Positions 8,658 through 56,125 of a stretch of DNA of 64,000 bases are shown here, in pieces. A model generated the notes under the pieces. It saw only the letters and a list, made by a program, of their open reading frames with translations, did no database searches and was not told the DNA's origin. The position numbers and the translations under genes were made by a program. The stretch is taken from assembly GCA_017991775.1 (NCBI GenBank), contig JAGOPV010000001.1:20869-84868 (forward strand). The letters are read 5' to 3'. Every line of letters starts with the position of its first letter. Position 1 is the first letter of the stretch. The stretch is from Candidatus Levyibacteriota bacterium. GTDB lineage: Bacteria > Patescibacteriota > Microgenomatia > Levybacterales > UBA12049.

Positions 8658-10799
8658 TTACTCTTGTGGGGTTGAAGATCCATTGAGAAATGCATCAACA
8701 TCACGAACGAGAATATCTCTTGGCTTTGCACCATCCGCATGTCCAACGACCCCGGCTTCTACTAATTGATCAATGATGCGAGCTGCCTTGGCATACCCAA
8801 TAGACATTTTTCTCTGCAAGAATGAGGCAGATGCTTGATTGAACTGGCAAACTATTCTCACTGCATCCTCAAACTCTGGGTCACGTCCACCAGGTCCACC
8901 TCCACTAGATGATCCACCTTTCCCCCTGACATTCACTGGCTGATTAATCACCTCTTCTGTATACTCAACAGGATAATTGTTGTTCTTGAGGAACTCAACT
9001 AACTTCTTTACCTCTTTCTCAGATACATACGCACCCTGAAGTCGTGTTGGCTTTGCCATATCTGGAGGTGTATAAAGCATATCCCCTCGACCTAAGAGCT
9101 TTTCGGCACCAGGACTATCTAAGATAACTCGAGAATCAATCATGGATGACACGTTGAAGGCAATTCTAGTTGGAATATTTGCCTTAATAAGTCCAGTTAT
9201 AACGTTGACAGATGGTCTCTGTGTCGCAATAACAAGATGTATTCCGGTCGCTCGAGCCATCTGTGCAAGACGCGCGATCGCATCCTCAACTTCAACTGGC
9301 GCGAACATCATAAGATCTGCCAACTCGTCGATCACAACGACGATGTATGGAAGTGCCTGGAAGCCTGAGAGCTCATTATAGCCCTCAATATTGCGCACGC
9401 CTCTCTCAGCAAAGAGCTTATAGCGCCTATCCATCTCTCCCATCGCCCATTTCAGAGCAGAAAGGATCTTATCAGGCTCCACAATTACTGGAGTCAAAAG
9501 ATGGGGAATGCCATTAAAGGCTGAGAACTCAACGCGCTTTGGATCGACAAGAATTAATTTGACCTCCTGAGGCGAAGCTCTAAAGAGAAGTGAGCAAATA
9601 AATGAGTTAACAAGTACTGATTTTCCTGACCCAGTTGTACCAGCTACGAGAACATGCGGCATCTTACCAATGTCTGCAATTTGCGGACTTCCGGACACAT
9701 CAAGACCCATCGAGACTGCCAGCTTTGATTTACTCTTTTGCATCGCAGGTGAGGCGAGCATTGTGCGAAGTGTGACGACCTCAAGCGATCTATTTGGAAT
9801 CTCAATACCTACAAGATTGCGCCCTGGAATTGGAGCCTCAATACGAATCTGACCGGTTGGTGCCTCTGTTGCCAGAGCCAAGTCATTTGCAAGTGAGGTG
9901 ATCTTTGAGACTTTCGTTCCTAGAGCGATCTCGAGTGCGTACTGCGTGACTGCTGGACCAAGATTCACCTCAGCTACATGAGCCTCAACGCCAAAACTCT
10001 GCAGTGTCTTCTCAATTAAAGAAGCGGTCTTATTGATATCTCCACGCTCCGCCTTTGCACCTGGCGCTTCACTCAGGAGTGAAAGGGCAGGGTACTCCCA
10101 GATACCATTTCCACCTTCACCCAGAACATTGGTGATTAGTTTCGCTGCAATCAGATCATCTGGCTCGTCTTTTTTATTTGGGGCTTGCTGGTTCATCTTT
10201 AATGGCTGAACTGGCATGTCTTTCTGCTGCCCACCTTTGATAATGATCGGCTTTGATCGATCAAGTGATGACTCCCCTTTTGGATCTCTCTTAAAAAGAC
10301 TTGTAGGCACCATTCTATGAGAATTGTTCATGAGGCCTTGAACACCCTTAACGATCTCATCTGCAGATGTATCAAAGAAGACAACAACGCCGATGATTGC
10401 ACCAGCAATAAAAACGAGATCAGCACCAATTGTTGTTAAAATTTCCTCCAAAATATGGAACATTCCAAGTCCAACCGTGCCACTCTTTGTGAGGCCCAAA
10501 AGTGCAACGAAAAAAACGAGGTAACCAAAGGCGACATGTGCTCGAGAGAGATACATCTTCAAATGAAGTAAGAGCATAGCGAAAAAGAATGGAACGAGGG
10601 GAAAGAGAAATGATGCACCTGCAAATTTCTCTAAAAGAATATCATTTAACCGAGCTACAGTATCACCATTTCTTAGAAATGAGAGGAAGAATAATCCAGA
10701 AAGTGCGATCAAACCTAAGGAAAAGAGCGTGTAGATAGTATTCTTTTTGAGCTTGACCTTAAAACCTTTTCGTCTGCTAGAGCGTTTCTTTGACTTCAT
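8658..10799 (-). CDS. ftsK: DNA translocase FtsK/SpoIIIE
   Basis: N-terminal TM helices, motor domain with Walker A (VLVAGTTGSGKSV) and C-terminal gamma-domain-like winged helix. Start chosen at the internal MKSKKRSS (10799); the ORF-track start is 10838. Confidence 0.85.
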   Translation of the reverse strand: MKSKKRSSRRKGFKVKLKKNTIYTLFSLGLIALSGLFFLSFLRNGDTVARLNDILLEKFAGASFLFPLVPFFFAMLLLHLKMYLSRAHVAFGYLVFFVALLGLTKSGTVGLGMFHILEEILTTIGADLVFIAGAIIGVVVFFDTSADEIVKGVQGLMNNSHRMVPTSLFKRDPKGESSLDRSKPIIIKGGQQKDMPVQPLKMNQQAPNKKDEPDDLIAAKLITNVLGEGGNGIWEYPALSLLSEAPGAKAERGDINKTASLIEKTLQSFGVEAHVAEVNLGPAVTQYALEIALGTKVSKITSLANDLALATEAPTGQIRIEAPIPGRNLVGIEIPNRSLEVVTLRTMLASPAMQKSKSKLAVSMGLDVSGSPQIADIGKMPHVLVAGTTGSGKSVLVNSFICSLLFRASPQEVKLILVDPKRVEFSAFNGIPHLLTPVIVEPDKILSALKWAMGEMDRRYKLFAERGVRNIEGYNELSGFQALPYIVVVIDELADLMMFAPVEVEDAIARLAQMARATGIHLVIATQRPSVNVITGLIKANIPTRIAFNVSSMIDSRVILDSPGAEKLLGRGDMLYTPPDMAKPTRLQGAYVSEKEVKKLVEFLKNNNYPVEYTEEVINQPVNVRGKGGSSSGGGPGGRDPEFEDAVRIVCQFNQASASFLQRKMSIGYAKAARIIDQLVEAGVVGHADGAKPRDILVRDVDAFLNGSSTPQE

Positions 10800-10854
10800 G
10801 ATACTTATCCATAATAGCACATACCTAGCCTCACGCAACTACTATACGAAGTTT

Positions 10855-12567
10855 TTAGACCTCAATCACAACGGGGAGTACAAGTGGACGCTTTCGAAGT
10901 CTCTTAAAGATATATTTACTTGCTGTCTCTTCAATTTGCTTTCTTGTATGCACCCAGTTAGTGACTCTTCCCTTTTTAGTAGCAAGGATGTTCTTTAGCT
11001 CATGGGCAAGACCTGTCTCAATCAATTTAGCATCAGCTGGCAAAAGTCCTCGAACAATAAAGTCGGGCCTATCAACAAGCTGGCCATTTGCAGCCGAAAC
11101 TTCGATCATTAAGATCAAAATACCATCTTTTGCTAATTTCTCTCTATCTCGAAGGACAAACCCCTCGATCTCCCCTCCCGAAACCTGATCAACATAGACA
11201 TTTTTCATTGGAATCTTTCGCCCCTTCTTATACCCATCTTTCCAGAAAATGATCTCCTGACCATTTTCAATGATAAGGACATTCTTCTCTGGATAATCAA
11301 GCTTGAGCGCTAGCTCTTTATAGTAAACAAGGTGCTTATAATTACCACTAATTGGGATGACGAACTTGCCCTTTAGAAGCGACATCATCATGTAATGATC
11401 TTGGATAGATCCATGACCGGAGACGTGTAGAAGTGCACCTTGCTGCGAAGTAATTGCATGTGCTCCAGTCTTTGCAATTGAGTCGATAAGGCTATTAACA
11501 GCTTCTTCATTACCAGGAATTGGATCTGATGAGAAGACGACGACATCATCTTTTGTCAGATGGATTTCACGATGCTCACCCTCTGCGATTCGGGTAAGCG
11601 CTGAGTTCTCTTGCCCCTGACTTCCAGCTGCAATATAAACAAGCTTGTTGTCTGGATAATTTGAAGCTTGAGCAAGCTCTATAAGCGTCCCATCCTGAAC
11701 TTGAAGATAGCCAATTCGCTTCGCAACATCGGTCACTTTCACAAGCGATCGTCCCACAAGACAAACTTTACGACCATACTTCTCGGCTGCTGCAATAATT
11801 TGGTTGATTCTTGCAACGTTTGACGAATATGTCGTCAGGATGAATTTACCCTTACACTCAGAAAGTGCTCTCTCAAATGATTTTCCGATTCCTTGGTCTG
11901 AAGGCGTTTGACCTTGGCGATCAGATCCCAGTGAATCACTAAGGTGCACCATGACTCCCTCTTTAGCAAAATTCGCGATTGACTCAAAGTCCATTCGCTT
12001 TTTGTCATAAGGTGTTAGATCAATCTTAAAATCGCTGCCATGATAAAAATTACCGACAGGAGTCCTAATAAAAATATTTGCACTATCTGGAACCGAGTGG
12101 GTGACATGAATAAAGCTACAACTAAAGCTCCCGAGTGTTATTGGTTTATCCCCAAAAGATACTGAGCGCACATCCGCTGGCAATTCTAATTCACGCAATT
12201 TTTCATTTGCAAGGGCTGCTGTAAATGGAGTTGCGTACACCGGCATCTTTGGAAGCTGTGGCAAAATAAATGGAATAGCACCGATATGGTCTTCATGTCC
12301 ATGAGTAAGGAGGAGTCCAACTATCTTTTTCTTTGTTGTCAGAAGATAACTGATATCTGGAATAAGAAGGTCAACGCCAAGCATTGAACTGTCTGCAAAT
12401 CCAATACCACAATCAACTATGAGAATTTCATCTTTGTATTCATAAAGATATAAATTCTTTGTAACGTCTTCCAGTCCTCCAAGCGGAAGGAAAGAGACTG
12501 TATCTGCTGGCACTGATTGTGCATTTTTTTGATGATGTACTGGCTGTGGTGTAATTTGTTTTTCCAT
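10855..12567 (-). CDS. rnj: Ribonuclease J (metallo-beta-lactamase / beta-CASP RNase)
   Basis: LLLTHGHEDHIGAIPFI motif, beta-CASP region and C-terminal domain; 570 aa. Confidence 0.85.
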   Translation of the reverse strand: MEKQITPQPVHHQKNAQSVPADTVSFLPLGGLEDVTKNLYLYEYKDEILIVDCGIGFADSSMLGVDLLIPDISYLLTTKKKIVGLLLTHGHEDHIGAIPFILPQLPKMPVYATPFTAALANEKLRELELPADVRSVSFGDKPITLGSFSCSFIHVTHSVPDSANIFIRTPVGNFYHGSDFKIDLTPYDKKRMDFESIANFAKEGVMVHLSDSLGSDRQGQTPSDQGIGKSFERALSECKGKFILTTYSSNVARINQIIAAAEKYGRKVCLVGRSLVKVTDVAKRIGYLQVQDGTLIELAQASNYPDNKLVYIAAGSQGQENSALTRIAEGEHREIHLTKDDVVVFSSDPIPGNEEAVNSLIDSIAKTGAHAITSQQGALLHVSGHGSIQDHYMMMSLLKGKFVIPISGNYKHLVYYKELALKLDYPEKNVLIIENGQEIIFWKDGYKKGRKIPMKNVYVDQVSGGEIEGFVLRDREKLAKDGILILMIEVSAANGQLVDRPDFIVRGLLPADAKLIETGLAHELKNILATKKGRVTNWVHTRKQIEETASKYIFKRLRKRPLVLPVVIEV

Positions 12568-12574
12568 AGTTATT

Positions 12575-13708
12575 TTAAAGTGTTATAAAATCTTTTACAT
12601 TGTCAGGACCGATTCTCACATATTGAGCTTTCCCTTCGATGATTTGTCGAGCGACCTTGCGACACATTCCTTCAATTGTTCGTTCTAATGAGCGTATTCC
12701 AGAATCAAACCCTAATGGCCTGATCACAGATTGCCAGACAGTGTCATCAACGACTATCTGCTGCTCTGTTAATCCTGAATTCGAACGAATTCTCTTGAAG
12801 AGATAGTTCTTTGCGATGATGACCTTTTCATCATCTGAATATGATGGCATTTGAATTATCTCAAGTCTATCTAATACCGCTGTTGAAATATTGGTCGTAT
12901 TATTTGCAGTTGCGATAAAAAACACATTTGAAAGATCAAATGGAAAATCAATGTAATGATCCAAAAACGAATAATTCTGCTCTGGATCTAGAAGCTCTAC
13001 CAGAACTCCCATGATATCTCCGCGATAACTCTCAGTGACACGATCTAACTCATCCAAAAGTATTACTGGATTCTTAGATCCTGCATGAACTAGCTTTTTA
13101 ATGACCGCGCCTGGCTCAGAATCAGGAAGCGCTTTTGACTGACCCCTTAATGAGCGAGAGTCGGCCATGCCTCCAAACGGAATACGTTCAAATTTTTTAT
13201 TAAGAGCATCAGCGACAGACTTGGCAAGGGTCGTTTTACCTGTACCTGCTAAGCCAACCAGGCAAAGAATTGGTGCGCGCTGAACGACATCCTTCCTACC
13301 TGCTTTTAAATTTAGGATTATAGTTGCAAGATAATCCAAAATACGATTCTTAATCGAATCAAGTCCATAATGGTTTTGATCCATCAGCTCTTTTGCATGA
13401 AGAAGATCCAATGTGTCCTGAGTCTGAGTCTCCCAAGGGAGAGTAACTACCCAATTCACAAATGACGATGTATTCTCATACTCGAGAATATAATTTGCGC
13501 TCATGAATCCCGAGCTTGAACGTAAAAGTGCTAGTCTTGAAACTCTTTCAAGAATATTAAGTTTTAATTGATCTGGAAGCTTTGCCTGCTCGACTCTTTC
13601 TCCAAGTCTTCGAATTTGATCTGTTGATTCATGTGTGGCTGATTGAGAGCTCGCACTTTGAGGTTGAATTATTTGATCGCTAATGACACTGGCAGTCGGT
13701 TCGGGCAT
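12575..13708 (-). CDS. Lon-like AAA+ ATPase lacking the protease domain
   Basis: Strong Lon AAA+ similarity: YGLDSIKNRILDYLA, Walker A LVGLAGTGKTT, Walker B LLDELD, sensor ATANN, LDRLEII, SGIRSLER. The protein ends (..KDFITL) where the Lon peptidase domain would begin, and the Lon N-domain is also absent. Confidence 0.75.
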   Translation of the reverse strand: MPEPTASVISDQIIQPQSASSQSATHESTDQIRRLGERVEQAKLPDQLKLNILERVSRLALLRSSSGFMSANYILEYENTSSFVNWVVTLPWETQTQDTLDLLHAKELMDQNHYGLDSIKNRILDYLATIILNLKAGRKDVVQRAPILCLVGLAGTGKTTLAKSVADALNKKFERIPFGGMADSRSLRGQSKALPDSEPGAVIKKLVHAGSKNPVILLDELDRVTESYRGDIMGVLVELLDPEQNYSFLDHYIDFPFDLSNVFFIATANNTTNISTAVLDRLEIIQMPSYSDDEKVIIAKNYLFKRIRSNSGLTEQQIVVDDTVWQSVIRPLGFDSGIRSLERTIEGMCRKVARQIIEGKAQYVRIGPDNVKDFITL

Positions 13709-13723
13709 ATACTACTATCTTAC

Positions 13724-16120
13724 CTAATAATGTGTTCTTCTGCGAGGGCTTGATCCTGCTGGTCTTTTCTCAACTCTTTCTCTCTCAAATTGACGAGAAA
13801 GTGGATGCTTAGTCTCAGCTGCGTCAGCTGCTGGAGCCTCAACTCTATTAAAATCACGTCTAAATGGTGCTGGTGCTGGCCGAGATGCTGGAGCTCCATA
13901 TGCAGGTCGTGGAGATGCGCTTCTTCTCTCAAAAGGTGGTCTTGATGAACTTGACGATGGTCTTCTTTCATATCCACCACTTCTTGGCTCTCGAGGTGGC
14001 TGACCTGATCCAGAATCAGTACTTTCACCACTCTCACCAAACTTCATAGTAAGATTAATTCTTCCTTGATCATCAATCTCCTGAACTCGGACCTTTACCA
14101 CTTCTCCAAGCGATACAACATCCTCAGGTGAATTAACAAATCCTTCGCCCATCTTAGAAACATGTACCATGCCTTCTTTACCAGGCAAGATCTCAACAAA
14201 TGCACCGAAAGGCAAGATTCTCTTAACTGGACCATCAAATACCTCTCCAACCATTACTTCACGGGTCAATCCCTTTACCCATTCAATTGCTTTGTTGACT
14301 GCTTCGCTATCAGTTCCAGAGATAGTTACCGATCCATCATCTTCAACGTCAACTGTCGCTCCAGTTGTTGCGATGATATTCTTGATAGTCTTTCCACCAG
14401 GACCAATAAGTTCGCCAATCTTCTCGACTGGAATAGTTACAACTTCGATCTTTGGAGCATACTTTGAAAGTTCAGCACGTGGTGCTGCGATCGCATTATT
14501 CATTTTTTCAAGAATAATCATTCTTGCTGACTGAGCTCTATCCAAGATCTCTCCAACTTGCTTATCTGTAAGACCTGGAACTTTAACGTCCAATTGGATA
14601 GCTGTAATGCCTGTGTCTGTTCCTGCTACCTTAAAGTCCATATCTCCAGAGAAATCTTCAATTCCGATAATGTCTGTAATAAGAACATAGTCTTTCTCGT
14701 TTGACATCATTCCGACTGAAATTCCAGCTACTGGCTTAGTGATTGGCACACCAGCGTCCATGAGCGCGAGTGTTGATCCGCAAGTTGATGCCATAGAGCT
14801 TGATCCGTTCTGGGAAAGAACTTCTGAGACAACTCGGATCGTGTACGGGAATGCAGCCTTTGTTGGGATAACGGCCTCAAGTGCTCTCTCTGCCAATGCT
14901 CCATGACCTGTCTCTCTTCGAGAAACTGATCCAAATCTTCCAGCCTGTCCGAATGAATATGGTGGTCCTGAATAATGATGAATATATCTCTTTGATTCTT
15001 CGCCTTCTGCAGATTCAAGCAATTGTTCCATGCGAGGAGAGCCCAGAGTTACAATTGAAAGCGCCTGTGTAAGACCTCTATTAAAGACTGCTGACCCGTG
15101 AGTTCTTGGCAAAAGTCCAAGTTCCATAGAAATATCTCGTATTTGATCAATCTTTCTTCCATCAGCTCTCACTTTTTTCTCAATAAGATTTGATCTAATG
15201 ATCTTGAACATGACAGCTTCTAGTGCTTTTCCAAGAATCTTTTTATCAAGAGATGTTTCAGAATCTGCAGATTTTGCAGCCTCAACGATCTTAGCTAAGA
15301 GCTCAACTGTCTCAGATCCTCCGCCCTCTTTGTTCGCACTAGCTTCGATCAATGCCTCAACCTCAGCACTGTATGACTTCTCAACAAATGCAATTGCATC
15401 TGCAACTAATGGATCTTTTGCAACTTCAATTTTTGCTTGACCGATCTCTTTCGTGACCTTTTCGATAAAGGCAACCATTTTCTGCGTCTCTTTATGAGCC
15501 TCTACGATCGAATTATGGACAACATTCTCAGGAACCTCTAATGCTCCAGCTTCAATCATTACTGTCAGATCCTTACTCTGACTTGCAACGATATCGAGCT
15601 TTGACACTTTCATTTCACTACCTACTGGATTGAAAATGTATTCTCCTGCTTCATCAAGACCCATACGGATAGCTCCAATTGGACCTTTCCATGGAATTGG
15701 TGAGATAGCAAGCGCAAGGGAAACTGCATTAAGAGCTAAGATGTCTGGCTTGTGCTCTCCATCTGCTGAAAGAAGTGTTACAACTACCTGTACTTCATTT
15801 TTATATTCCTTGGGGAAAAGTGGTCTAATAGAGCGATCGATAAGTCTTCCGATAAGAACCGCTTCATCAGTTGGACGTCCTTCTCGCTTTACCCATCTAC
15901 TACCCTTGATGCGGCCACCAGCATAGAGCTTTTCTGCATATTCAACACTAAGTGGGAAATAATCAATATCATCACGAGCATTTCCTGCGACGACAGTAAC
16001 AAGCACGACAGTTTCACCTAAGCGTGCTAACACGCTTGATGTTGCTTGTGGAGCTAGGGTACCGATATCAAATTTGATTTCTTTTCCGGCGAATTCAATC
16101 ACCTGTGAGGTCTTTTGCAT
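13724..16120 (-). CDS. pnp: Polynucleotide phosphorylase (PNPase) with an extra ~110-aa R/S/P-rich C-terminal tail
   Basis: Two RNase PH domains, a KH domain and an S1 domain (VGEVFDGPVKRILPFGAFVEI), followed by a low-complexity tail (..RRPSSSSSRPPFERRSASPRPAYGAPASRPAPAPF..). Confidence 0.9.
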   Translation of the reverse strand: MQKTSQVIEFAGKEIKFDIGTLAPQATSSVLARLGETVVLVTVVAGNARDDIDYFPLSVEYAEKLYAGGRIKGSRWVKREGRPTDEAVLIGRLIDRSIRPLFPKEYKNEVQVVVTLLSADGEHKPDILALNAVSLALAISPIPWKGPIGAIRMGLDEAGEYIFNPVGSEMKVSKLDIVASQSKDLTVMIEAGALEVPENVVHNSIVEAHKETQKMVAFIEKVTKEIGQAKIEVAKDPLVADAIAFVEKSYSAEVEALIEASANKEGGGSETVELLAKIVEAAKSADSETSLDKKILGKALEAVMFKIIRSNLIEKKVRADGRKIDQIRDISMELGLLPRTHGSAVFNRGLTQALSIVTLGSPRMEQLLESAEGEESKRYIHHYSGPPYSFGQAGRFGSVSRRETGHGALAERALEAVIPTKAAFPYTIRVVSEVLSQNGSSSMASTCGSTLALMDAGVPITKPVAGISVGMMSNEKDYVLITDIIGIEDFSGDMDFKVAGTDTGITAIQLDVKVPGLTDKQVGEILDRAQSARMIILEKMNNAIAAPRAELSKYAPKIEVVTIPVEKIGELIGPGGKTIKNIIATTGATVDVEDDGSVTISGTDSEAVNKAIEWVKGLTREVMVGEVFDGPVKRILPFGAFVEILPGKEGMVHVSKMGEGFVNSPEDVVSLGEVVKVRVQEIDDQGRINLTMKFGESGESTDSGSGQPPREPRSGGYERRPSSSSSRPPFERRSASPRPAYGAPASRPAPAPFRRDFNRVEAPAADAAETKHPLSRQFERERVEKRPAGSSPRRRTHY

Positions 16121-16124
16121 TTAT

Positions 16125-16394
16125 TTAGTCTTTCAATCCTATCTTCTTCTTAATATCTGAGGAACGGGTCTTATCGACCTTAACCAAAAAATTGAGAAGT
16201 CTTCTTCTTTTAGCGATCATGGACAAGAGTCCACGTCTACTATGAGTATCATGCGCATGATCTTTAAGGTGATCAGCGAGCCTTGTGATGCGGTGAGTAA
16301 GGAGTGCGATCTGCACTTCTGGACTACCAGTATCACCATCCACTGTCTGGAATGATTTAATTATATCTTGTTTTTGTGTCGTTGAAAGCGGCAT
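16125..16394 (-). CDS. rpsO: 30S ribosomal protein S15
   Basis: 89 aa; matches the S15 family (..GSPEVQIALLTHRITRLADHLK..) in the classical rpsO-pnp arrangement. Confidence 0.9.
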   Translation of the reverse strand: MPLSTTQKQDIIKSFQTVDGDTGSPEVQIALLTHRITRLADHLKDHAHDTHSRRGLLSMIAKRRRLLNFLVKVDKTRSSDIKKKIGLKD

Positions 16395-16440: not shown

Positions 16441-17571
16441 TTATGAAACAGAGGTAGAACCTTTGTACACCTTAGGTGTTAGCCAGTCAGATGGCGGCTT
16501 TGGCTGGTTATTATCAGATGCAAGATCAGGCACCAAGACAGGAGCGCTCTCTGAAGCAGGCTCCATAGATGGCTGACTATTCTGTGGTTGAGACTGTTGC
16601 TGTTGTTGACCACTATTTCTATTTACATGCTGTCTTAACGCTTCACGAACATTCTCTCTTCTATCTTCAGTGCGAGGCTGCTGATTTTGATTCTGATTTT
16701 GGCTTGAACGATGTGAATTATCCTGCCTTGGCTGATTTGATCCTGTTCTCACTGGTGAGGATTGGTTTGGTCTTTGTGATGGTCTAGGCAATTCATCTGC
16801 TCGATCAAGCCTAGGAGTAGCTTGCTGTGGTCGAACTGAAGTAGCCTTTCTTACTGCACCCCTCTTAATAAGGATTGATGCGATCTCAAAAGCAAGATAA
16901 CTAGTCTTTGGATCTTGGAAATTATTTGTTGCGTCAGTTAGGCCAATCATGAGGTTTTGTGACACATCAACATCTAGCTCCATTTCAAGATTAAGAAGAA
17001 GGTCAGCCACCTGCTCTGAGAGCGATGAAAACTTTGCAGAAACGAGAACAACATTCCCATACCCTTCATTAGTACTGACATTATCAATATTTAATAGTGT
17101 TACGGCATTGAGAATTTCCTCAGAAAACATTGAAGAAAGCTGAGAAATTGAGCCAACTCCAACTGAGATGATCATGTCTGGCTTATCTGCTCCTCGCTTA
17201 AATTGAACATCGCTCTCCTGGAATGTAAGACCCTTCTCGCCCGCCTTAACAACAATATTAAGAGCATCGCCTTCAATGGTATATGAAACCTTATCAATTT
17301 CTCCCTCTCTATACGGAAATGAAACAACGAGATCGCCATTTCCACCCTCGTCTGCACCTTTTACACGGTCAATACCAACGAGTGATGAGTGCTCAACAAG
17401 AGCTGCGGTTGGGGAAATAACGTATGTCTTTTTTCCCTGAGCATTCATGCTTAGAGAGATTGCAAGCGCACCGGCCATTTGATCAACTGAGGGATTTGCG
17501 GAGACCACTATAGCTACACGATTACTTCGTGCGATAAGATCGCGAATTTGTGATAATGCATTTGTATCCAT
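16441..17571 (-). CDS. DHH-family (NrnA-like) phosphoesterase homologue with degenerate catalytic motifs and a Q/N/P-rich tail
   Basis: Alignable to NrnA, but motif I is PSVDQMAG rather than PDxDxxGS, motif III is NIDNV rather than DHH, and there is no GGGH. The C-terminal ~110 aa are low-complexity (QNQNQNQQPR..). Confidence 0.55.
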   Translation of the reverse strand: MDTNALSQIRDLIARSNRVAIVVSANPSVDQMAGALAISLSMNAQGKKTYVISPTAALVEHSSLVGIDRVKGADEGGNGDLVVSFPYREGEIDKVSYTIEGDALNIVVKAGEKGLTFQESDVQFKRGADKPDMIISVGVGSISQLSSMFSEEILNAVTLLNIDNVSTNEGYGNVVLVSAKFSSLSEQVADLLLNLEMELDVDVSQNLMIGLTDATNNFQDPKTSYLAFEIASILIKRGAVRKATSVRPQQATPRLDRADELPRPSQRPNQSSPVRTGSNQPRQDNSHRSSQNQNQNQQPRTEDRRENVREALRQHVNRNSGQQQQQSQPQNSQPSMEPASESAPVLVPDLASDNNQPKPPSDWLTPKVYKGSTSVS

Positions 17572-17582
17572 AGTATCCTATA

Positions 17583-19022
17583 TTATTCATGGGATATTAT
17601 CACATCTCCAACCTGGAAGTCAAGTAATGGGGAGATAATTATGCCTGCTTCATTTCCTTTTTCTACCTTCGAAAGTGGGTTCTTTCCAACTCGTAGTGAG
17701 ATAATCTGGGTCTCGCCAATCACTGTATCTCCACGCATAATGCGAGCCCTGTCCCCTTTTGCTAGACGTCCATCTAGAATTCCCACACCAAGCGCAAATG
17801 TCTTCTCAAATGGAAATTTAGCCAAGACTTTAGCCTGACCATAGACCTGCTCCATCATGGAGAGCTCCTTACCTTCGATCGCATCGGCAATCTCACTTAA
17901 AAGCTCATAAATAATCGTATAGTTCTTCGTCAAAACCTTCTCTGTACGAGCAAGCGTTGCAACTTCTGGCCTGATCTTTGAATTAAACCCGATCACAAAG
18001 GCTCCAGTTGACTTTGCAAGCAAAATATCAGCCTCAGTCATTTCGCCTGTCTTCTGAGTGATAATCTTTGCTTTATCAGAAATTGCTGCAGTTATTGCCT
18101 CAAGTGAGCCTTGAGTATCAGCTAAAAGTATAAGAGCCAACTCTTCTTTATTAGCATTTGGCTGATATGCCTTCACAGCTCCAGTAGCTTGAACTTCTAT
18201 TTTTGCAGACTCAACATTGCTAATAATACTTCCAACTTCAGGAACTTGTAAAAATCCTAAGATCTCAACTGCATCACCAACTGTTGCTGAGGCTACCGTC
18301 CTGCCGGCATCATCGAGAAGATTGCGAACCTTGAACTTCCCACCAGTACTAAATAGCTCATCTCGAGGTGTGACTGTTCCACTTTTTACGATGACTGTCG
18401 CACGAGGGCCCATCTTTTGATCAAGTTTGGACTCAATCACAATAGCTGAAAGTGGCTGATCTGATGTAGCGCTTGGGCTCTCAGATGTATGGAGTTCTTG
18501 AACAAGAAGAATGAGATCTAAAAGCTCTTTGATATTCTCCTTTGTCTTTGAGGAGACTTCAATAACAGGTATATCTCCACCCATGCCCTCGACCATTAGT
18601 CCTTCACGGACAACTTGGCCTTTTACCTTCTCTGGATTCTTGGTCTGAAGATCCGACTTAGTAAGAACGACAATCAAAGGTACCCCAGACTCCTTGAGCA
18701 CATTAATACTTTCTCTCGTCTGTGGCATGACACCATCTGTTGATGATACTACGAGAAGTCCGATATCGGCAGCCTGTGCCCCTCGACCTCTCATTTTCGA
18801 GAAAGCTTCGTGCCCAGGAGTATCAATAAATGTGATCTTTCTTTTTTTACCATCATGAAGGACTTCGATTGATGATGCGCCAATTTTCTGGGTAATACCC
18901 CCGTGTTCACGATCAACAATAGAAGTTTCACGAATTGAGTCAAGAAGCGAGGTTTTGCCGTGGTCGACGTGACCTAAGACAGCTACGACAGGTGGATAAA
19001 GTGTTGTGTTTGTTTCAGCCAT
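17583..19022 (-). CDS. infB: Translation initiation factor IF-2 (short form, no N-terminal extension)
   Basis: The G domain starts at residue ~10 (VVAVLGHVDHGKTSLLD, DTPGHEAF, NKSD) and is followed by beta-barrel domains; 479 aa. Confidence 0.85.
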   Translation of the reverse strand: MAETNTTLYPPVVAVLGHVDHGKTSLLDSIRETSIVDREHGGITQKIGASSIEVLHDGKKRKITFIDTPGHEAFSKMRGRGAQAADIGLLVVSSTDGVMPQTRESINVLKESGVPLIVVLTKSDLQTKNPEKVKGQVVREGLMVEGMGGDIPVIEVSSKTKENIKELLDLILLVQELHTSESPSATSDQPLSAIVIESKLDQKMGPRATVIVKSGTVTPRDELFSTGGKFKVRNLLDDAGRTVASATVGDAVEILGFLQVPEVGSIISNVESAKIEVQATGAVKAYQPNANKEELALILLADTQGSLEAITAAISDKAKIITQKTGEMTEADILLAKSTGAFVIGFNSKIRPEVATLARTEKVLTKNYTIIYELLSEIADAIEGKELSMMEQVYGQAKVLAKFPFEKTFALGVGILDGRLAKGDRARIMRGDTVIGETQIISLRVGKNPLSKVEKGNEAGIIISPLLDFQVGDVIISHE

Positions 19023-19054: not shown

Positions 19055-20221
19055 TTAAGCCTTGGTATCGTCGGACTCGTCATTTTCAGTAGCAACTTCA
19101 GGTGCAGTCTCAGCAGTCTCAGCAGTCTCAGATACAGCTTCTGGCTGTGATTCAACTTCCGCTACCTCTTCTACCTCAGGTGTAGGCTCAGCTACAGCTT
19201 CATCTACCTTCACTTCTTCAACTTCTGGCTTAGTCTCTACTTCTTCCACTTTAGCCTCCTCGGTTACTACTGGACCACTACCCTCTATTTCGATACGGTA
19301 TCCTGTCAGTTTTGATGCCAATCGCACATTCTGGCCATCTTTACCTATGGTAAGTGAGAGCTCTTCTTGAGGAACAAAAATCTTCGCCATCTTTTCTTCT
19401 TCATGAAGCTCTACGCGAACATTCTTTGCTGGAGAAAGTGATGCTGCAATAAAAGCTGTTGTGTCGTTTTGCCACTGAATAATGTCGATCTTTTCCATAC
19501 CATTGAATTCTTGAATGATAGCCTGAACACGGACACCTTTCTGTCCAACACAGCTTCCGACTGGATCAATTCCACTCTGGGTTGAGGCTACGGCGACCTT
19601 AGCTCGATTACCAGGCTCGCGAACAATCTCTTTGATCTCAACACTGCCTGACGCTACTTCTGGTACCTCTCGCTTGAAAAGACCCTCAAGGAGACCATTG
19701 TCACTTCGTGAAACGATTACTTCCTCGCCCTTAATACCTTCTTTTATTTCCTTAAGGAAGACAACAAGGCGCTGATTCTGGTAATACTTTTCATTTTGGA
19801 TTTGCTCTGAAATAGGCATAAGAGCCTCAGTCTTTCCTATATCAATAATGATGTTAGGACCTGCAAAACGAAGAACAGTTCCATTGATGATCTGACCCAT
19901 CTTGATCTTGTAGTCTGAAATAATAGCTTCTTTTTCTTTCTCGCGGATCTTCTGCAAGATCACTTGCTTTGCTGTCTGAGCCGCAATACGTCCAAATCCA
20001 GGAGGTGTAACATCTTTTCCGTTGTGGAGAATACTTGCCTCACCCGTATTAGGATTGAGGTCAGCTGCGAACTCTTCGACTTCAATGCCAGGATGATCTT
20101 TTCGATAGGCTGCAAGAATAGCATTCTTAACTGTGTCAAGAACAACACTGATATCAACGCCACGTTCTGTCGCGACTTGATTGAGGGCAAGAGCAAATTC
20201 ACTTCTTTGTACTGCTGGCAT
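19055..20221 (-). CDS. nusA: Transcription termination/antitermination factor NusA with acidic repeat tail
   Basis: NusA N-domain, S1 and KH motifs (MPAVQRSEFALALNQVATERG..). The C-terminal E/V/A/T repeats are encoded by a 9-bp x3 tandem (cagtctcag) near 19110-19140. Start taken at 20221; the ORF-track start is 20296. Confidence 0.85.
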   Translation of the reverse strand: MPAVQRSEFALALNQVATERGVDISVVLDTVKNAILAAYRKDHPGIEVEEFAADLNPNTGEASILHNGKDVTPPGFGRIAAQTAKQVILQKIREKEKEAIISDYKIKMGQIINGTVLRFAGPNIIIDIGKTEALMPISEQIQNEKYYQNQRLVVFLKEIKEGIKGEEVIVSRSDNGLLEGLFKREVPEVASGSVEIKEIVREPGNRAKVAVASTQSGIDPVGSCVGQKGVRVQAIIQEFNGMEKIDIIQWQNDTTAFIAASLSPAKNVRVELHEEEKMAKIFVPQEELSLTIGKDGQNVRLASKLTGYRIEIEGSGPVVTEEAKVEEVETKPEVEEVKVDEAVAEPTPEVEEVAEVESQPEAVSETAETAETAPEVATENDESDDTKA

Positions 20222-20300
20222 AGTATGTCTAGTATACCAGATAAGCCCAGCACGATCAACAGCGTGAGAACGAGGTGCCTGAAGATGAGGAGTCAAGCAT

Positions 20301-22706
20301 TTACATACTTTTTACTTGCAAATTATTTGAAGTGTCAACATACATTTCCAGAACCTGGCCACGACCTATCTCATTCTTAAGAAGTTTTTGAGCAAGTATA
20401 TCCTCAATAGTGTCTTGCACGTATCTCCTAATCGGACGAGCACCATACTCAGCATTATATGCCTCCGTCGCTACCTTCTTAGCAACACTCTCTGAGAATG
20501 TCACCGTAATATCTTTTTCTTTTAGAGAATTAGAGACTTCCGCAAGAATAAGTTGCGCAATCCTCTCCACATCTTCATGGGAAAGTGGTGAAAAGGTGAT
20601 GACACTGCCAAACCTATTGAGAAGTTCAGGCCTAAAAAGATGATTTTGCGCTAGGTAAGACATAAGCTGCTGGGGGAACTCAGCGGTATTCCCGCCGCCA
20701 GACTGGACAGCCTTATAAATAAAGTCAGACCCTGCATTTGAAGTCGCAATAATAATTGTATTAATAAACGAGACAGTCTTTCCTCGATTATCTGTGAGCC
20801 TACCGTCCTCCAAAACTTGAAGGAAGAGATTCAGAATGGCTGGATGTGCTTTCTCAAATTCATCAAGGAGGATTAAGGAATTTGGATTGTCGCTCACTTT
20901 CTCAGTAAGCTCTCCGCGCTGCTCACCCTCCCCGGGAAGTGATCCTAAAAGTCTTCTAACCCCATCCTCAGTCGTATATTCGCTCATATCAAGTCTTATC
21001 ATTGAGGCCTCGCCGCCAAAATAGACTTCCGCGAGTGTCTTTGCAACCTTTGTCTTACCAACTCCGGTAGGTCCGAGAAAGAGAAACGAGATAGGTTTTC
21101 TTTGCACTTCGACACCAGATCGAAGTCTTCTCATCCCTTCTGCAATTGCAGTCACTGCTACATTTTGCCCTATGACACTTTTGTGGAGGATCTCTTCAAG
21201 ACGCAAAAGTGTGTCTTTTTCAGAAGATGATGGGTCATGCATGGCGATCTTTGTCTTACTTTCTATCGAAGTGATTAAAATATCCTCAGTCAAGATAAGT
21301 TTTTTGGTATTACCATAGTAAAGCTTTGGCTGATGTGACGGCAGTGCACTGATTGCATCGCGCAAAAGATCGACACCGCTTCCTGGGAGCACTTCTTTAT
21401 TCGCAAAATACCGATCAGCATAAACAGTTGCTTGGTGGACTGCAAGATAGGTGATGATGATCCCGTTCTCCTTCTCAAGTTCGCCCGCTTTCTCCATTAA
21501 GATTTTCTCTGCAAAATCGATAGCAGGCTCTTCAATGATAATTTCATTGAACATCTGATTGAGGACTGTCGAAGCAAGGTATGTCTTATATGCGCCCTTA
21601 CTCATTGTCGTGATCACTGGGAGCTTGCCAGTCTTAAGATATGGCATAAGTGCCCCAGATAGATCGAGCGCAAAACTACCTGAGCCTAGAAGGTTCTCGA
21701 ATTCTGGGATGTAGAGAATAAGATTCTCTGCATGTGAAACTTCATCAATGATGCTTTGCAGCCGCTCTTCTAGCTCACCTTTCTCATTGGTCCCAGCCAA
21801 TAGTTCTCCAGCCATGAGCTCTATTACTGTCTTATTTTCAAGACCATGGGGAACTTGCTTTGCAAAACTATCCGAGACGAACTTTCGAACAAGATTCTCT
21901 TTCCCGGTTCCGACATCGCCAACAAGGACAATATTATTGTTCTCAGTCTTTGAAAGGCCTTCAAGCATCCTTTGATATTCAGCTTCTCTACCCATGCCAA
22001 ATGTATGGCCAGATCCAGTAAATACTCTTGTGTACTTTAAGGTCTCTGGCGTCCATCCAGTTAAAAGACTCTCACCGATACCGCCTCCTGGTACAGTAAT
22101 CTTTAATTTTCTTGGCGATTCTTCATCTTTATTCTCATTTCTTGCCCATGCAAGTATCTTGAACACATCCTCAGCGCGCAGCTTTTTAGATCTTAGGACA
22201 TGTACGACTGGCTCCTCCTCAAGCAGATATGCAGCAGCAACATCCATTGAAGTTATGACAGTTCCTCCAACTTTTTGAGCAACAACACCTGCGCTGGCAA
22301 GCAGAACATCTTTTGCCATCGTACTCTTTGGCAAATCTTTATCTGTTAATGGGATTCTTTCTAGCAGGAACTGAACATGCGGAAAAGCGAGTAACTTATG
22401 GACCATCTCATGCGCGTCACTACTAGACTGATACGCAAAGAGGACACTAATACTAGCTACATCTTTATCGGTAGTGCCAGGTGTGCCAAGCTTCCTAGTT
22501 GGATATCCAAGCGATATTCCATAACGATAAAAAATCTCAAACATGATAAAAAGATTGAGGAAGAAAAGTGGAAGTCGTGGATGAATCCCATCCAAAATCA
22601 TGAGCGCTGTAATGCCAGATAACCCTAGCAAAACAAGAATGCGCAGCAACTTTACAAAACTTGTTCTATAGATTCCATAAATAAAGGCTGTGTTAATTAA
22701 ATTCAT
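20301..22706 (-). CDS. Membrane-anchored Clp/Hsp100-type double AAA+ ATPase (ClpC-like) with a degenerate D1 module
   Basis: Two N-terminal TM helices, a Clp_N-like region, then D1 with atypical Walker A (GDVGTGKE) and Walker B (ILYIPEF). D2 is canonical (GPTGVGKT, LILLDEFEKAH, ATSNAGS, GARPIRR). No IGF/IGL ClpP-docking tripeptide seen. Confidence 0.7.
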   Translation of the reverse strand: MNLINTAFIYGIYRTSFVKLLRILVLLGLSGITALMILDGIHPRLPLFFLNLFIMFEIFYRYGISLGYPTRKLGTPGTTDKDVASISVLFAYQSSSDAHEMVHKLLAFPHVQFLLERIPLTDKDLPKSTMAKDVLLASAGVVAQKVGGTVITSMDVAAAYLLEEEPVVHVLRSKKLRAEDVFKILAWARNENKDEESPRKLKITVPGGGIGESLLTGWTPETLKYTRVFTGSGHTFGMGREAEYQRMLEGLSKTENNNIVLVGDVGTGKENLVRKFVSDSFAKQVPHGLENKTVIELMAGELLAGTNEKGELEERLQSIIDEVSHAENLILYIPEFENLLGSGSFALDLSGALMPYLKTGKLPVITTMSKGAYKTYLASTVLNQMFNEIIIEEPAIDFAEKILMEKAGELEKENGIIITYLAVHQATVYADRYFANKEVLPGSGVDLLRDAISALPSHQPKLYYGNTKKLILTEDILITSIESKTKIAMHDPSSSEKDTLLRLEEILHKSVIGQNVAVTAIAEGMRRLRSGVEVQRKPISFLFLGPTGVGKTKVAKTLAEVYFGGEASMIRLDMSEYTTEDGVRRLLGSLPGEGEQRGELTEKVSDNPNSLILLDEFEKAHPAILNLFLQVLEDGRLTDNRGKTVSFINTIIIATSNAGSDFIYKAVQSGGGNTAEFPQQLMSYLAQNHLFRPELLNRFGSVITFSPLSHEDVERIAQLILAEVSNSLKEKDITVTFSESVAKKVATEAYNAEYGARPIRRYVQDTIEDILAQKLLKNEIGRGQVLEMYVDTSNNLQVKSM

Positions 22707-23179
22707 GCAAATAATAAATAAATCGTGACAAATGGAAAGAGTAAAAAACCAATAAGAAGCACCAGTTCAAGTATGAGCAATGGAATAAAGAGGATAAGTG
22801 ATGCAAGAATGATCATAGACTTAATCGCCATTCCCATCCCCCGCGAGAACCCGACAAGTCCTTTACGATACTCATTTTTAAGCGGTTTAAAAAAAGTCTT
22901 GAGAAGTAAAAAGACTGAAAAAACCTCAAAGTATGCAGCATTCAACTGCATAAAATAACGAACTAAGCCTAGCGGTGCACGAATGAACCAAAAATATAAG
23001 AATCCTATGGGGAGCATGAGCAGGGCAGGCATACAAATTACTCTCTCAAGTATACGATCCCTACAATTAAAACTCAACAAATTTAAAATTATGTATAATA
23101 CGATTATGGCTATTCCCGAAAGAAATTTGCCCAATCCAGACGTAGTCCCCGGTCCACAAGCGCTTACAGCAGATATCAT
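22703..23179 (-). CDS. Polytopic small membrane protein, overlaps the downstream Clp-like gene by 4 nt
   Basis: About four hydrophobic helices; the ATGA overlap with the 20301-22706 gene suggests translational coupling. The start codon is uncertain. Confidence 0.45.
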   Translation of the reverse strand: MISAVSACGPGTTSGLGKFLSGIAIIVLYIILNLLSFNCRDRILERVICMPALLMLPIGFLYFWFIRAPLGLVRYFMQLNAAYFEVFSVFLLLKTFFKPLKNEYRKGLVGFSRGMGMAIKSMIILASLILFIPLLILELVLLIGFLLFPFVTIYLLFA

Positions 23180-24650
23180 GAAGAGTGAACTCTCTGAGCA
23201 AGATAAAACGATGCTTAAAGAGAAAAGGACCTTTTATGAATCACTAAGGGGTGATGAAGCCACAATTGATGCTGTGAATGGACTAATCGCAGAAGTAGAG
23301 CCGATAGATAAGTGGAGAGAAGTTGCCCGCAAGGCTCGCGTAGAGATAGAGACACTACCACCAGACATTCTTGAACGAGTATTTAACAAAGCAACGCCAT
23401 ATATCAAAAACCTCCCTGCTGGACATGGGAAGGGACATTTCCTTAGAGATACAATCAATGCCACTCTCCTACTCCAGGATCCCGCCATGAGCACATATCC
23501 ACCTGAGGAAGTCATGTCTGGCGTACTTGCAGCAATGTATCATGACATCGGCAATTCTGTCGTTAATAGATATGAGGAAATGAATCGATTTGCTGCACAT
23601 GGTGAAGTAGGAGCACATCTATTTGGAGATATAGCTAAGGATGTCATACCTCCAAATCTACTTAAAATGACTCAACTCTCAATTGCTGGACATACTCACT
23701 ATAGAGCAGATGCAATCATCTTGAGAGATAGCGAAAACGGTGAGCCCATACCTGTACCAGCCGGATCAATAGCTCTTGATAGAGATGGAAAGGAGATAAC
23801 TTCTCCTACTTACACCGGCGAAGTCCAAATTAAAAATACAGCAACTGGAAAGGTCAAGAGAAGGAACGCTGTTCGTCGAGTGCGCAAGATCCATGATGCT
23901 AAAATTGAAGATGGAGCCAAAACAGCTTTCTGGATATCTCGATGGACAGATAGGCTTGATACTCGCGGAGTATCACATGCCGTGAGACACATTATTACGA
24001 AGGCTAGTCCAACCAGCGACTTTGATGGTAAAGAATTTAATACGATCCACCCCGATGAGCAGACTGATTTCCAACGAGAATTTGAACCCCGAAGAAACCC
24101 AAATAGCAAAAATGTAATTGGACACTTCCTTCAATTGGCAGGCTCCGACACAGAGCGAGATGCCCAAGGAGGAAAAGGGTTTTATAACCAATACGATACT
24201 GATTATATGACTGAAAAACTTTTTGGACCCGAAGATCTAGTTATGAATGAACTAATACAAACCATCGAGAATGCGCCTGATACATTGTCTCGCAAGGATC
24301 AGACTGGAAAGGATTACATTCTGAAAGAAGGTATGGCGAAATTTGAAGCCCTAGCTCAACTCCTTGAACCTGCGCGTGATCTTGAAGGACAACTGGGGAA
24401 ATTAGGAGAAAAATTTGAAAAACTTGGTGAACAAAAATATGCCTGGGCACTTGGATTTAAGCAGCTTTTTGATAAGCTTTATCCTGAAACAGAGGCTAGG
24501 AAGACAACTAGTCTCAAAAATATTTCACCTCTTAATTTTGGAGGGAAGCCAACATCTGAAAGAGTAAATACCATTCTGGGAACTCATCTTTATGGAATAG
24601 CCCGAGCGGCTGAGGAACAATTCAAGCAAAAACCCCTAGCTACTTTATAA
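23091..24650 (+). CDS. HD-domain protein of the dGTPase/SAMHD1-like (dNTP triphosphohydrolase) type
   Basis: Motif series [10 protein letters not shown] .. YHDIGN(x17)HGEVGAHL .. [10 protein letters not shown] resembles H..HDxGH..HEQGS..DxxD of dNTP triphosphohydrolases; the second His of HDxGH is Asn here. Start taken at the internal ATG 23091; the track ORF starts at 22983 and would overlap the opposite-strand gene. Confidence 0.5.
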
Positions 24651-25541: not shown

Positions 25542-25994
25542 TTATCGTTCTCTCGGCCTCCTGTGGGCAATCTTCTTTGGAGGTTGACGCTTAGCTGGAG
25601 CGAATAATACTCCACTACCCTCAAGTCTTTCCTGTGTTACTGAGGAGTTTAAACTAGGGTAAATTGGTCTTCCGGTGCCGTCATCTGCAAATCCTATCGG
25701 TGTTAGCCCATCTACAACCCCGTGACCTACACCATTTCCACTCTTACTATCCAGAGGTGACTGCGAGACTGATGGCGCCCCCTCACCGATCTCACTTTTT
25801 ATAACCGGTTGATTAATCACTGGGGATACAAACTTGGCAAGAGTAGGATTTACTTCACTTAATGGGGTATGCCGAGGTAAAATTCCCTGATCATCTAAGA
25901 GTTGAGCTTCATGGTCTGATACCCCAGCTTCAGATGCTTTTTCTTCAGGGATAAATACCCCATGAGGCTCTCTTTCTTCATTAGCTCTTATCAT
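25542..25994 (-). CDS. Hypothetical low-complexity protein between dnaK and dnaJ
   Basis: A 150-aa ORF fills the dnaK-dnaJ gap and overlaps the dnaK stop by 14 nt. It is P/G/S-rich and no domain was recognised. Confidence 0.3.
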
Positions 25995-27870
25995 CTACTA
26001 CTTCTCCTTCAACTGGCTCCTCTGATGATGGAGTCTCTGAAGAAGAGCTGTCAGCTGAATCCTGTGTCTCGGCAGGATTTGCTTTCGCCATTGCCTCACC
26101 GATTTTTTGAAGACTTTCTGAGAGCTCTGAAGTCTTTTGCTCGATATCTGACTTTGAACCAGACTCCAGAATATCTTTAAGGGCTTTTATCTTTTCCTCG
26201 ATCTCGGTCTTAAGACTATCCTCGATTTTACCCTCTGCGTCTTTTAGAGACTTCTCAGCAGTAAAGATAAGTGAATCAGCCATGTTCTTTGCCTCAATTG
26301 ACTCTTTCTTCTCTTCATCCTCTTTCGCATGAAGCTCAGCGTCTTTGGTCATCTTCTCTACTTCTTCTTTTGAAAGTCCAGTTGAGCCTGTGATCTTGAT
26401 ACTTTGCTCTTTTCCTGATGTCTTATCCTGAGCTTTTACATTCAAAATACCATTTGCATCGATATCAAAAGTCACCTCAACCTGAGGAACACCTCTAGGA
26501 GCTGGTGGGATACCATCGAGAACGAATCGACCAAGTGACTTGTTGTCAGCTGCCATAGGTCGTTCACCCTGAAGAACATTGATCTCAACCTGAGTCTGAT
26601 TATCCGCTGCAGTTGAATATACTTGTGATTTTGATGTTGGGATAGTGGTATTTCGAGCAATAAGTGCAGATGAAACACTTCCAAGCGTCTCAATACCAAG
26701 TGTTAATGGCGTAACGTCAAGCAAGAGCACATCTTTAACGTCGCCTGAAAGTACGCCGCCCTGAACTGCTGCTCCGATAGCTACTACTTCGTCTGGATTA
26801 ACAGACTTGTTAGGCTCTTTTCCAAAGAATTTAGAAACTGTCTCAACGATCTTTGGCATGCGCGTCATACCTCCAACCAAGACTACTTCATCAACATCTG
26901 AAGCTTTAATACCAGCGTCTTTGATAGCTTGCTCAACTGGCTTGAGTGTCTTTTGTACGAGCGAATCAACAAGCTGTTCAAGCTTTGCCCTTGTCAAAGT
27001 AAGTGTCAGGTGAAGTGGACCATTGGCACCCTGTGTGATAAATGGCTGATTGATTTGAGCTTCTTGACTACTTGAGAGTTCAATTTTTGCTTTCTCAGCT
27101 GACTCTTTAAGTCTTTGAAGTGCCTGTGGGTCTTGTCGAAGATCGACGTTGTTCTCTTTCTTAAATTCGTCAGCAAGATAATCGATCAAAACCTGATCAA
27201 AATCATCTCCACCAAGATGTGTATCACCATTAGTAGACTTAACCTCAGTTACGCCGTCTCCAAGTTCAAGAATTGAAATATCGAATGTACCTCCACCAAG
27301 ATCATAGACAGCAATAGTCTGAGCTTCTTTTTTATCAAGACCATACGCAAGCGCTGCAGCTGTAGGCTCATTGATAATACGCATCACTTCAAGTCCTGCG
27401 ATCTCTCCAGCCTGCTTTGTAGCCTGCCTCTGACTGTCGTCAAAATATGCAGGAACTGTAATAACAGCTTGTGTAACTTTTTCTCCGAGATAGTTTTCAG
27501 CATCTGCCTTGATCTTTTGCAGAATCATTGCGGAGATCTCTTGTGGGGTGTATGTCTTTCCATCAACCTCAACGATAGCCATATCATCTCTACCAGACTT
27601 TACAACGTATGGGAGTAGCTTCATGTCATTTTTGACTGTTGGGTCAGACAACTTTTTACCCATAAGTCTCTTTACTGATGAGATGGTCTCCTTAGGCTTT
27701 AATACCATCTGACGCTTTGCTACATCTCCAACGACGTGTGTCTTTGGATCCACAACTGATGGAATAACATTACGGCCTTCTGCTGAGTGGATCACCTTTG
27801 GCGATCCGCCTTCCATAACAGCCACACATGAGTTTGTTGTACCTAAATCAATACCAATTATTTTTGCCAT
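25981..27870 (-). CDS. dnaK: Chaperone DnaK (Hsp70)
   Basis: [18 protein letters not shown].., DLGGGTFD.. and a C-terminal lid with an EEVD-less acidic end. An AAGGAAA SD lies upstream of the start at 27870. Confidence 0.95.
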
Positions 27871-27874
27871 AATT

Positions 27875-56023: not shown

Positions 56024-56125
56024 ATATTTTAAGTTAACGAAGAAAAACCACAACGGTCTGTGTGGTTAGATAGTTCGAAGATGTGTGGATGAAATAATTC
56101 TCATGGTTCACATCGTAACTGTTCG

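Follow-up and report, generated by a model that had tools for sequence, protein, structure and literature searches.

What can be the role of a protein that resembles a nanoRNase, has lost most of the residues for catalysis, and is encoded directly downstream of infB? This question was raised by a 64-kb stretch of the genome of a Candidatus Levyibacteriota bacterium (contig JAGOPV010000001.1; hereafter the window, meaning all 64,000 nucleotides analyzed). The open reading frame (ORF) in question, located at 16441..17571 on the minus strand, encodes a protein of 376 amino acids (aa) composed of a degenerate DHH domain, a disordered linker and a C-terminal peptide. The protein was a 100% match to KBC15_00160 at NCBI, which derives from a metagenome-assembled genome (MAG) of Candidatus Levybacteria. 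The analysis described here assigned it to a conserved family of DHH proteins that cannot be canonical NrnA enzymes, and a role as a non-catalytic adaptor is the one we favor, with moderate confidence.

Identity of the protein encoded downstream of infB

The standard domain libraries did not recognize the protein. In the Pfam scan the DHH family remained below the threshold and DHHA1 was not found, and the NCBIfam model for NrnA (NF053633) scored 14.8 bits, the cut-off being 350; the precomputed Pfam assignments of the relatives contained PF01368 only. Despite these misses, the homology to NrnA is real. A phmmer search of PDB with the single sequence detected TM1595, Rv2837c and NrnA at E values of approximately 5e-4. 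A profile built from 94 family sequences gave E=4e-11, and a profile of 138 sequences covering two subfamilies reached E=1.5e-20 to TM1595 and 2e-18 to MSMEG_2630. The structure predicted by AlphaFold2 (AF2) showed a predicted local distance difference test score (pLDDT) mostly above 90 for residues 1-245, and Foldseek with this model gave E=9.5e-15 to Rv2837c. The best structural and profile matches thus included Rv2837c and MSMEG_2630, both members of the NrnA' clade, alongside TM1595. The NrnA-type DHH-like domain spans aa 1-245 (16837..17571, minus strand), and the profile and structural matches all stopped at approximately residue 245. The initial annotation, made from the sequence without database searches, had aligned the protein to NrnA, and this alignment was confirmed by phmmer, the family profiles and Foldseek, with the Pfam DHH model itself below threshold. 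These results demonstrated that the protein is a member of the DHH superfamily of the NrnA type.

Loss of the catalytic residues

The correspondence of the DHH motifs was read off the HMMER alignments, in which the placement of each motif was unambiguous. Motif I, canonically PDxD (PDGD), was found as N26-P-S28-V-D30 (17482..17496), where the first Asp is changed to S28 and D30 is kept, and motif II as S136-V-G138 (17158..17166), where the canonical Asp is replaced by Gly. The canonical DHH of motif III corresponded to N161-I-D163-N164-V165 (17077..17091), and the GxxTDTGxF of motif IV to G210-LTD-A214-T-NNFQ (16915..16944), with Ala in place of the catalytic Asp; all four remnants lie on the minus strand. 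Five of the seven metal/catalytic ligands were accordingly replaced, leaving D30 and D163. According to the titles of PDB entries, the D80N D154N double mutant of TM1595 is inactive. D80 is the Asp of motif II and D154 that of motif IV, and the equivalent positions are occupied by Gly (138) and Ala (214) in the present protein.

The DHHA1 domain, through which NrnA, RecJ, GdpP and family II pyrophosphatases bind their substrates, was absent along with its GGGH motif, as judged from Pfam and from the end of all matches near residue 245. The substitutions read by eye at the outset (PSVDQMAG for the motif I signature, DNV for DHH, and no GGGH) therefore held in the HMMER alignments, and were not intact ligands that had merely been shifted. 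The loss of GGGH had been described correctly but understated, because the entire DHHA1 domain is missing. We conclude that the protein cannot be a canonical NrnA.

The same degeneration was seen in a motif census of 487 relatives. No sequence had more than four of the seven canonical ligands, and most had two, D30 and D163, both of which were invariant. Position 28 was Ser, Thr or Asn in nearly all of the relatives. Position 138 was invariably Gly in the Levy-type sequences and Asp in the Roizman/Woese-type, while position 164 was Asn in the Levy-type, Arg in the Roizman-type and variable elsewhere. Position 165 was His or variable. The Roizman/Woese-type, in which motif III reads D-R-H, retained four ligands (D30, D138, D163 and H165). 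Position 214 was Ala, Ser, Gly, Asn, Gln or Thr, and Asp was never among its commonest residues in the sequences surveyed. The first Asp of motif I, the first His of motif III and the Asp of motif IV were gone from essentially all members, and GGGH was found in only one of the 487. Several residues of the former cleft, namely N161, N168, T215, N217, F218 and Q219, were highly conserved.

Beta insert, linker and C-terminal peptide

The family has two hallmarks that were overlooked in the first reading of the sequence. One is a family-specific beta insert at aa ~80-130 (GDLVVSFPYREGEIDKVSYT...LNIVVKAG..GLTF; 17182..17334, minus strand). This insert of approximately 47 aa, with the motif SFPYxEGxIEKVSY, was the best-conserved stretch of the protein and nearly invariant across the family, and its signature was present in all full-length members among the best 150 clusters obtained by the profile search described below.

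The other hallmark is the peptide P359-PSDWLTPKVYKGS372 close to the C-terminus (16456..16497, minus strand), which we read as a short docking motif. The nearly invariant peptide PPSDWLTPKVYKGS was detected in 473 of the 487 relatives, 5-9 residues from the C-terminus, with the family consensus PP[SA]DW[LF]xPK[IV][FY]KGS, and it was found in nearly all full-length members of the best 150 clusters. The conserved end is in frame, so that an untranslated tail is unlikely. When the other proteins of the window and of 90 related loci were searched for the motif, only chance or out-of-frame matches were obtained.

The folded domain and the peptide are connected by a linker of 113 aa rich in Q, R, P, S and N (aa 246-358; 16498..16836, minus strand), which occupies the place of DHHA1. 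Gln accounts for 19% of the linker, Arg, Pro and Ser for 12% each, and Asn for 11%. The low-complexity Q/N/P/S tail of approximately 110 aa that had been noticed initially was thus verified, and was also disordered by AF2, as the pLDDT of the linker was approximately 47-69 and residues 246-376 were predicted to be disordered throughout. Across the family, the length of the linker ranged from 12 to 297 aa with a median of 84. AF2 monomer models were obtained for the 376-aa protein and for P0011, a short-tailed relative of 302 aa with a deeper alignment, and docking of the peptide back onto the domain was seen in neither of the two models (peptide pLDDT 56-61).

Distribution and conservation of the family

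When 1.84 billion cluster representatives were searched exhaustively with a profile, 708 clusters were obtained at E<=1e-30, counted at 50% identity. The members were labeled as Levybacteria, Roizmanbacteria, Woesebacteria, Chisholmbacteria and 'Microgenomates', along with one bin of 'Howlettbacteria'. According to this taxonomy, which consists of the names supplied by the sequence sources, the family in effect spans the class Microgenomatia. The GTDB records carrying a Levybacteria-type locus (L006, L008, L012 and others) were often titled 'uncultured Gammaproteobacteria bacterium' or with other unrelated names, and such organism titles look like placeholders or wrong labels in third-party MAG submissions.

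The subfamilies are only about 30% identical to one another overall, yet there is almost no variation in the insert and in the C-terminal peptide. As the features of the protein recur in 487 homologues, they are not the product of chance. The conservation pattern in these alignments indicates that the motif loss is a fixed, selected state under purifying selection, and not decay.

A survey of the literature on DHH proteins in Microgenomates and on NrnA pseudoenzymes found no paper on the family, and the databases name its members variously 'hypothetical', 'NrnA', 'DHH family phosphoesterase' or 'nanoRNase/pAp phosphatase'. We therefore regard it as a conserved family without earlier description, that is, a pseudo-enzyme offshoot of DHH/NrnA whose architecture is distinctive but which is not a categorically new system. 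The names 'NrnA' and 'nanoRNase/pAp phosphatase' are probably wrong for these relatives, which accordingly should not be counted as nanoRNases in metabolic reconstructions of Microgenomatia.

Gene organization around infB

The gene is located within a row of tightly packed genes on the minus strand (10.8-22.7 kb of the window), in the order nusA, infB, the gene of interest, rpsO and pnp. The nusA gene (19055..20296, minus strand) is the first of a conserved block that can be written nusA-infB-X, where X is the gene of interest. The infB gene (17583..19022, minus strand), assigned by Pfam, encodes a short form of initiation factor 2 (IF2) of 479 aa, and its stop codon lies 11 nt before the ATG of X. 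Downstream, rpsO for ribosomal protein S15 (16125..16394, minus strand) starts 46 nt past the stop codon of X; this downstream neighbor is lineage-specific. It is followed by pnp for polynucleotide phosphorylase (PNPase; 13724..16120, minus strand), a candidate partner that was named, as was the RNase J gene rnj (10855-12567, minus strand), by comparison with the annotated loci of relatives. Relatives' loci of 6 kb and 21 kb showed the same gene order as the window.

The N-terminal region present in most bacterial IF2 proteins is entirely missing from the IF2 of the window, in which the GTPase domain begins at residue 13. The IF2 proteins encoded in the relatives' loci are likewise short (479-492 aa). 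In the PNPase of the window, the S1 domain is followed by some 100 aa that are rich in R, P and S and apparently disordered (13724-14030, minus strand), and NusA ends with a strongly acidic tail of about 70 aa rich in E, V, A and T (19055-19270, minus strand) in place of the AR1/AR2 domains.

We then compared 90 fetched loci, comprising those of 80 GTDB species representatives and those of divergent members. The order nusA-infB-X was found in all 90, with the IF2 gene directly upstream of X each time. The distance from the stop codon of infB to the start of X was mostly 1-12 nt and at most 91 nt, and in three loci of the Roizman/Woese-type the two genes overlapped by an ATGA (a gap of -4 nt). 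X is expressed as part of the nusA-infB operon, its start codon lying only a few nucleotides from the infB stop codon or overlapping with it. When the operon was scanned for promoters and terminators, the scores were no better than those of shuffled sequence, and Rfam and tRNA scans detected nothing near the gene. In the Levy-type and P0160-type loci, X was followed by rpsO-pnp-(Lon-like AAA)-rnj. In the Roizman/Woese-type loci it was followed by RmuC, and rpsO-pnp-rnj was not adjacent; two of these loci had truB approximately 5 kb downstream of infB-X and outside the operon (L086, 8643-9446; L089, 13414-14223). The infB-X junction was therefore the sole feature of the neighborhood kept throughout the family.

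In most bacteria, rbfA is located immediately downstream of infB. The initial annotation had placed X in the slot of rbfA/truB and had stated that no rbfA was present in the window. RBFA, TruB_N and a second DHH protein were not detected by Pfam in 57 ORFs of the window, including alternative-frame ORFs inside X; six called ORFs, among them pnp, rnj, the ClpB-like gene, 8658-10838 (FtsK) and 25981-27894 (637 aa), stood outside these scans. For the 57 ORFs, the absence of rbfA was thus borne out. The possibility that rbfA was hidden in an alternative frame was also addressed, and the ORFs within the gene had no Pfam family; in particular, the KH-type domain of RBFA (PF02033) had no Pfam match in the protein or in its alternative frames.

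The statement on the slot needs to be qualified. The gene does lie between infB and rpsO-pnp, but this is also the place of the infB-linked NrnA' clade. The nanoRNases of this clade (MSMEG_2630 and Rv2837c) have infB, rbfA and nusA as neighbors and are co-transcribed with infB and rbfA (Srivastav et al., PMC4081065). Because the NrnA' clade adjoins infB-rbfA, X sits at the position of its ancestor, and the element missing from the operon in Microgenomatia is rbfA itself. This is in line with a comparison of over 30,000 bacterial genomes, of which about 505 belong to the candidate phyla radiation (CPR). It reports that der, era and rbfA were lost from Dojkabacteria, WWE3 and Microgenomatia, and that CPR are almost devoid of rimM and rimP (PMC12641178). 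In the simplest history, the ancestral order would have been nusA-infB-rbfA-nrnA'-...-rpsO-pnp; rbfA would then have been lost, truB relocated or lost from the operon, and nrnA' converted into the present protein.

Possible function of the protein

As the loss of the motifs is a settled state of a large family that is under purifying selection, the reasonable explanation is a binding role and not an enzymatic one, and the pseudo-phosphoesterase with a binding role that had been proposed from the single sequence gains support from this degeneration. We consider it somewhat probable that the protein is a non-catalytic descendant of an infB-linked NrnA' nanoRNase that acts as an adaptor or tether. 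One conserved partner would be held by the best-conserved parts of the folded core, namely the insert and the remnant of the active-site cleft lined by Asn, Thr and Gln. Owing to the flexible linker, the terminal peptide would be free to bind elsewhere, either at a second site or on another copy of this partner.

Which partner this would be can be suggested tentatively. The likeliest candidates appear to be IF2 or the 30S subunit, with a function in translation initiation or 30S maturation, because infB is the sole invariant neighbor at a spacing in the range of coupling, the class is reported to have lost RbfA, Era, RimM and RimP, and its IF2 lacks the N-terminal region. Next in rank are the RNA-decay enzymes PNPase and RNase J. 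For the ribosome or RNA as the partner, which had also been put forward at the outset, we can only infer an association; the loss of rbfA in Microgenomatia fits it and is no proof of it (PMC12641178).

We regard with considerable doubt a bolder form of this proposal, in which a pseudo-nuclease has become a substitute for RbfA without being homologous to it, with a role in late 30S maturation or in licensing of initiation. The protein would be produced in step with IF2, its core would bind the immature 30S or the 3' region of 16S rRNA, and the tethered peptide would engage the N-terminally shortened IF2 or a ribosomal protein. The ribosomes of CPR are made with about half of the usual biogenesis factors, and the way in which these bacteria cope in the absence of RbfA, Era, RimM and RimP has still to be explained (PMC12641178). 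The family, being class-wide, is a concrete candidate to fill such a gap in translation or in RNA metabolism.

Several points weigh against the adaptor reading. The candidate partner is assigned from gene order only, and the adjacency to infB goes back to the NrnA' ancestor and may thus reflect history, not function (PMC4081065). Indeed, the neighborhoods of infB and pnp both come from an ancient operon, and therefore neither is strong evidence for a partner. With D30 and D163 invariant and four of seven ligands kept in the Roizman/Woese-type, residual binding of one metal or an unusual activity is conceivable. In addition, the AF2 evidence on the pocket and on the placement of the insert consists of pLDDT and secondary structure only, and NrnA-like dimerization was assumed.

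A rather unlikely alternative is that the protein forms the hub of an RNA-decay assembly resembling a degradosome. Its dead DHH core and disordered tail would then be a platform for PNPase, RNase J or RNase Y, and the C-terminal peptide with its Trp would attach to one of the first two. In favor of this, rpsO-pnp-(Lon-like AAA)-rnj comes right after the gene in loci of the Levy-type and P0160-type, the final stage of RNA decay is where NrnA enzymes act, and the PNPase of the window has an R/P/S-rich tail of its own. RNase J, RNase Y (54752-56053, minus strand) and PNPase are all encoded in the 64-kb window, where no RNase E was seen. There are also precedents for the two halves of such a protein. 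RecJ4 of Haloferax volcanii, a DHH protein with a long disordered region and without active-site residues, scaffolds aRNase J (PMC10470531), and in Caulobacter RNase E a GWW peptide at the extreme C-terminus, preceded by a disordered region, binds PNPase (PMC3376730). However, the peptide of the present family has one Trp in common with GWW and no sequence relationship to it. The Roizman/Woese-type loci keep the infB junction but not the adjacency to rpsO-pnp-rnj, with RmuC found instead, and the whole neighborhood belongs to the ancient nusA-infB...rpsO-pnp operon and may simply be inherited.

It is improbable that the protein is still an enzyme, namely a DHH phosphoesterase for a small substrate with a remodeled, perhaps one-metal site, the tail serving for localization only. 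Some databases do name the relatives 'NrnA' or 'DHH family phosphoesterase'. The invariant D30 and D163, the retention of D138 and H165 in the Roizman/Woese-type, and the highly conserved cleft residues N161, N168, T215, N217, F218 and Q219 could be explained by a residual site. On the other hand, three of the ligand positions (first Asp of motif I, first His of motif III and Asp of motif IV) are abandoned by essentially all members, both Asp positions of the TM1595 double mutant described as inactive are lost in the present protein, and DHHA1 is absent. Moreover, position 164 varies freely among the subfamilies (N, R, I, Y, T, K), so that a shared catalytic role of this residue is unlikely.

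Lastly, lost catalytic residues and a low-complexity C-terminal half can mark a dying gene, but the idea of a functionless, decaying nrnA relic with a tail drifted from the former DHHA1 sequence appears effectively refuted by conservation and is very improbable, considering the intact reading frame in 487 relatives over several candidate phyla of Microgenomatia, the near invariance of the insert and peptide between subfamilies of about 30% identity, and the position and tight infB coupling kept in all 90 loci, which come from very small genomes.

Other genes in the window

Directly upstream of nusA, a gene at 20301-22706 (minus strand) encodes a ClpB-like ATPase of 801 aa, named by comparison with the annotated loci of relatives, many of which have it at the same place; its N-terminus is hydrophobic and, by eye, probably membrane-spanning. 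Between pnp and rnj lies a gene (12575-13708, minus strand) for a Lon-like AAA+ protein of 377 aa, which has AAA and Lon_lid domains and lacks a protease domain, and which is kept at this place in most of the Levybacteria loci. The gene at 8658-10838 was assigned to FtsK from its position beside rnj, as in the relatives' loci. HflX is encoded at 60873-62012 on the plus strand. An ORF of 784 aa at 1157-3511 (plus strand) showed a weak match to the phage family Baseplate_J (E=1.3e-7), which was unexpected in a small CPR genome. Three further ORFs, of 555 aa (22983-24650, plus strand), 356 aa (41244-42314, minus strand) and 497 aa (32453-33946, plus strand), had no Pfam family at E<=1e-5 or 1e-4.

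Comparison with known systems

The closest resemblance is to TM1595 of T. maritima and to the NrnA' clade (Rv2837c/CnpB of M. tuberculosis and MSMEG_2630 of M. smegmatis), with which the protein shares the DHH fold, sequence similarity and a place by nusA-infB(-rbfA). The nusA-infB neighborhood characteristic of NrnA' was found in 90 of 90 loci, with rbfA itself missing between infB and X. The protein differs from these enzymes in lacking five of the seven ligands, DHHA1 and GGGH, and in having the insert of about 47 aa, the linker and the C-terminal peptide. RbfA is the product of the usual gene directly after infB, the slot held here by X, but it is a type II KH domain of about 100-130 aa, whereas the fold of the present protein is DHH with no RBFA match and no homology.

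In its layout the protein resembles SSB, in which a folded core is followed by a low-complexity linker of variable length rich in Gln and Pro and by a conserved free C-terminal tip. The fold and sequence are unrelated, and the tip is aromatic and basic (DWLTPKVYKGS), in contrast to the acidic tip of SSB. A Trp-containing tip after a disordered region is also shared with the GWW peptide of Caulobacter RNase E (PMC3376730); the peptide sequence and the carrier protein are different, and binding of PNPase by the present protein would be an analogy.

The absence of active-site residues from a DHH fold places the protein with the non-catalytic DHH scaffolds of the RecJ4 and Cdc45 type, which constitute a functional class and not a homology family; Cdc45 and the archaeal RecJ-Cdc45 (GAN) are counted among the closest known systems. 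RecJ4 of H. volcanii is the non-catalytic scaffold of the RecJ3/4-aRNase J complex, and like the present protein it combines a DHH domain devoid of active-site residues with a disordered region; RecJ4 holds RNA-processing enzymes together (PMC10470531). It is not a close relative, as it is archaeal and of the RecJ type, has S1/OB domains and carries its disordered region internally, whereas the protein described here, characterized from its sequence and models, is of the NrnA type and has a C-terminal disordered region with a conserved end peptide. If the adaptor reading is true, the family would add a bacterial case to the DHH nucleases that have become scaffolds, comparable to Cdc45 in eukaryotes and RecJ4 in archaea.

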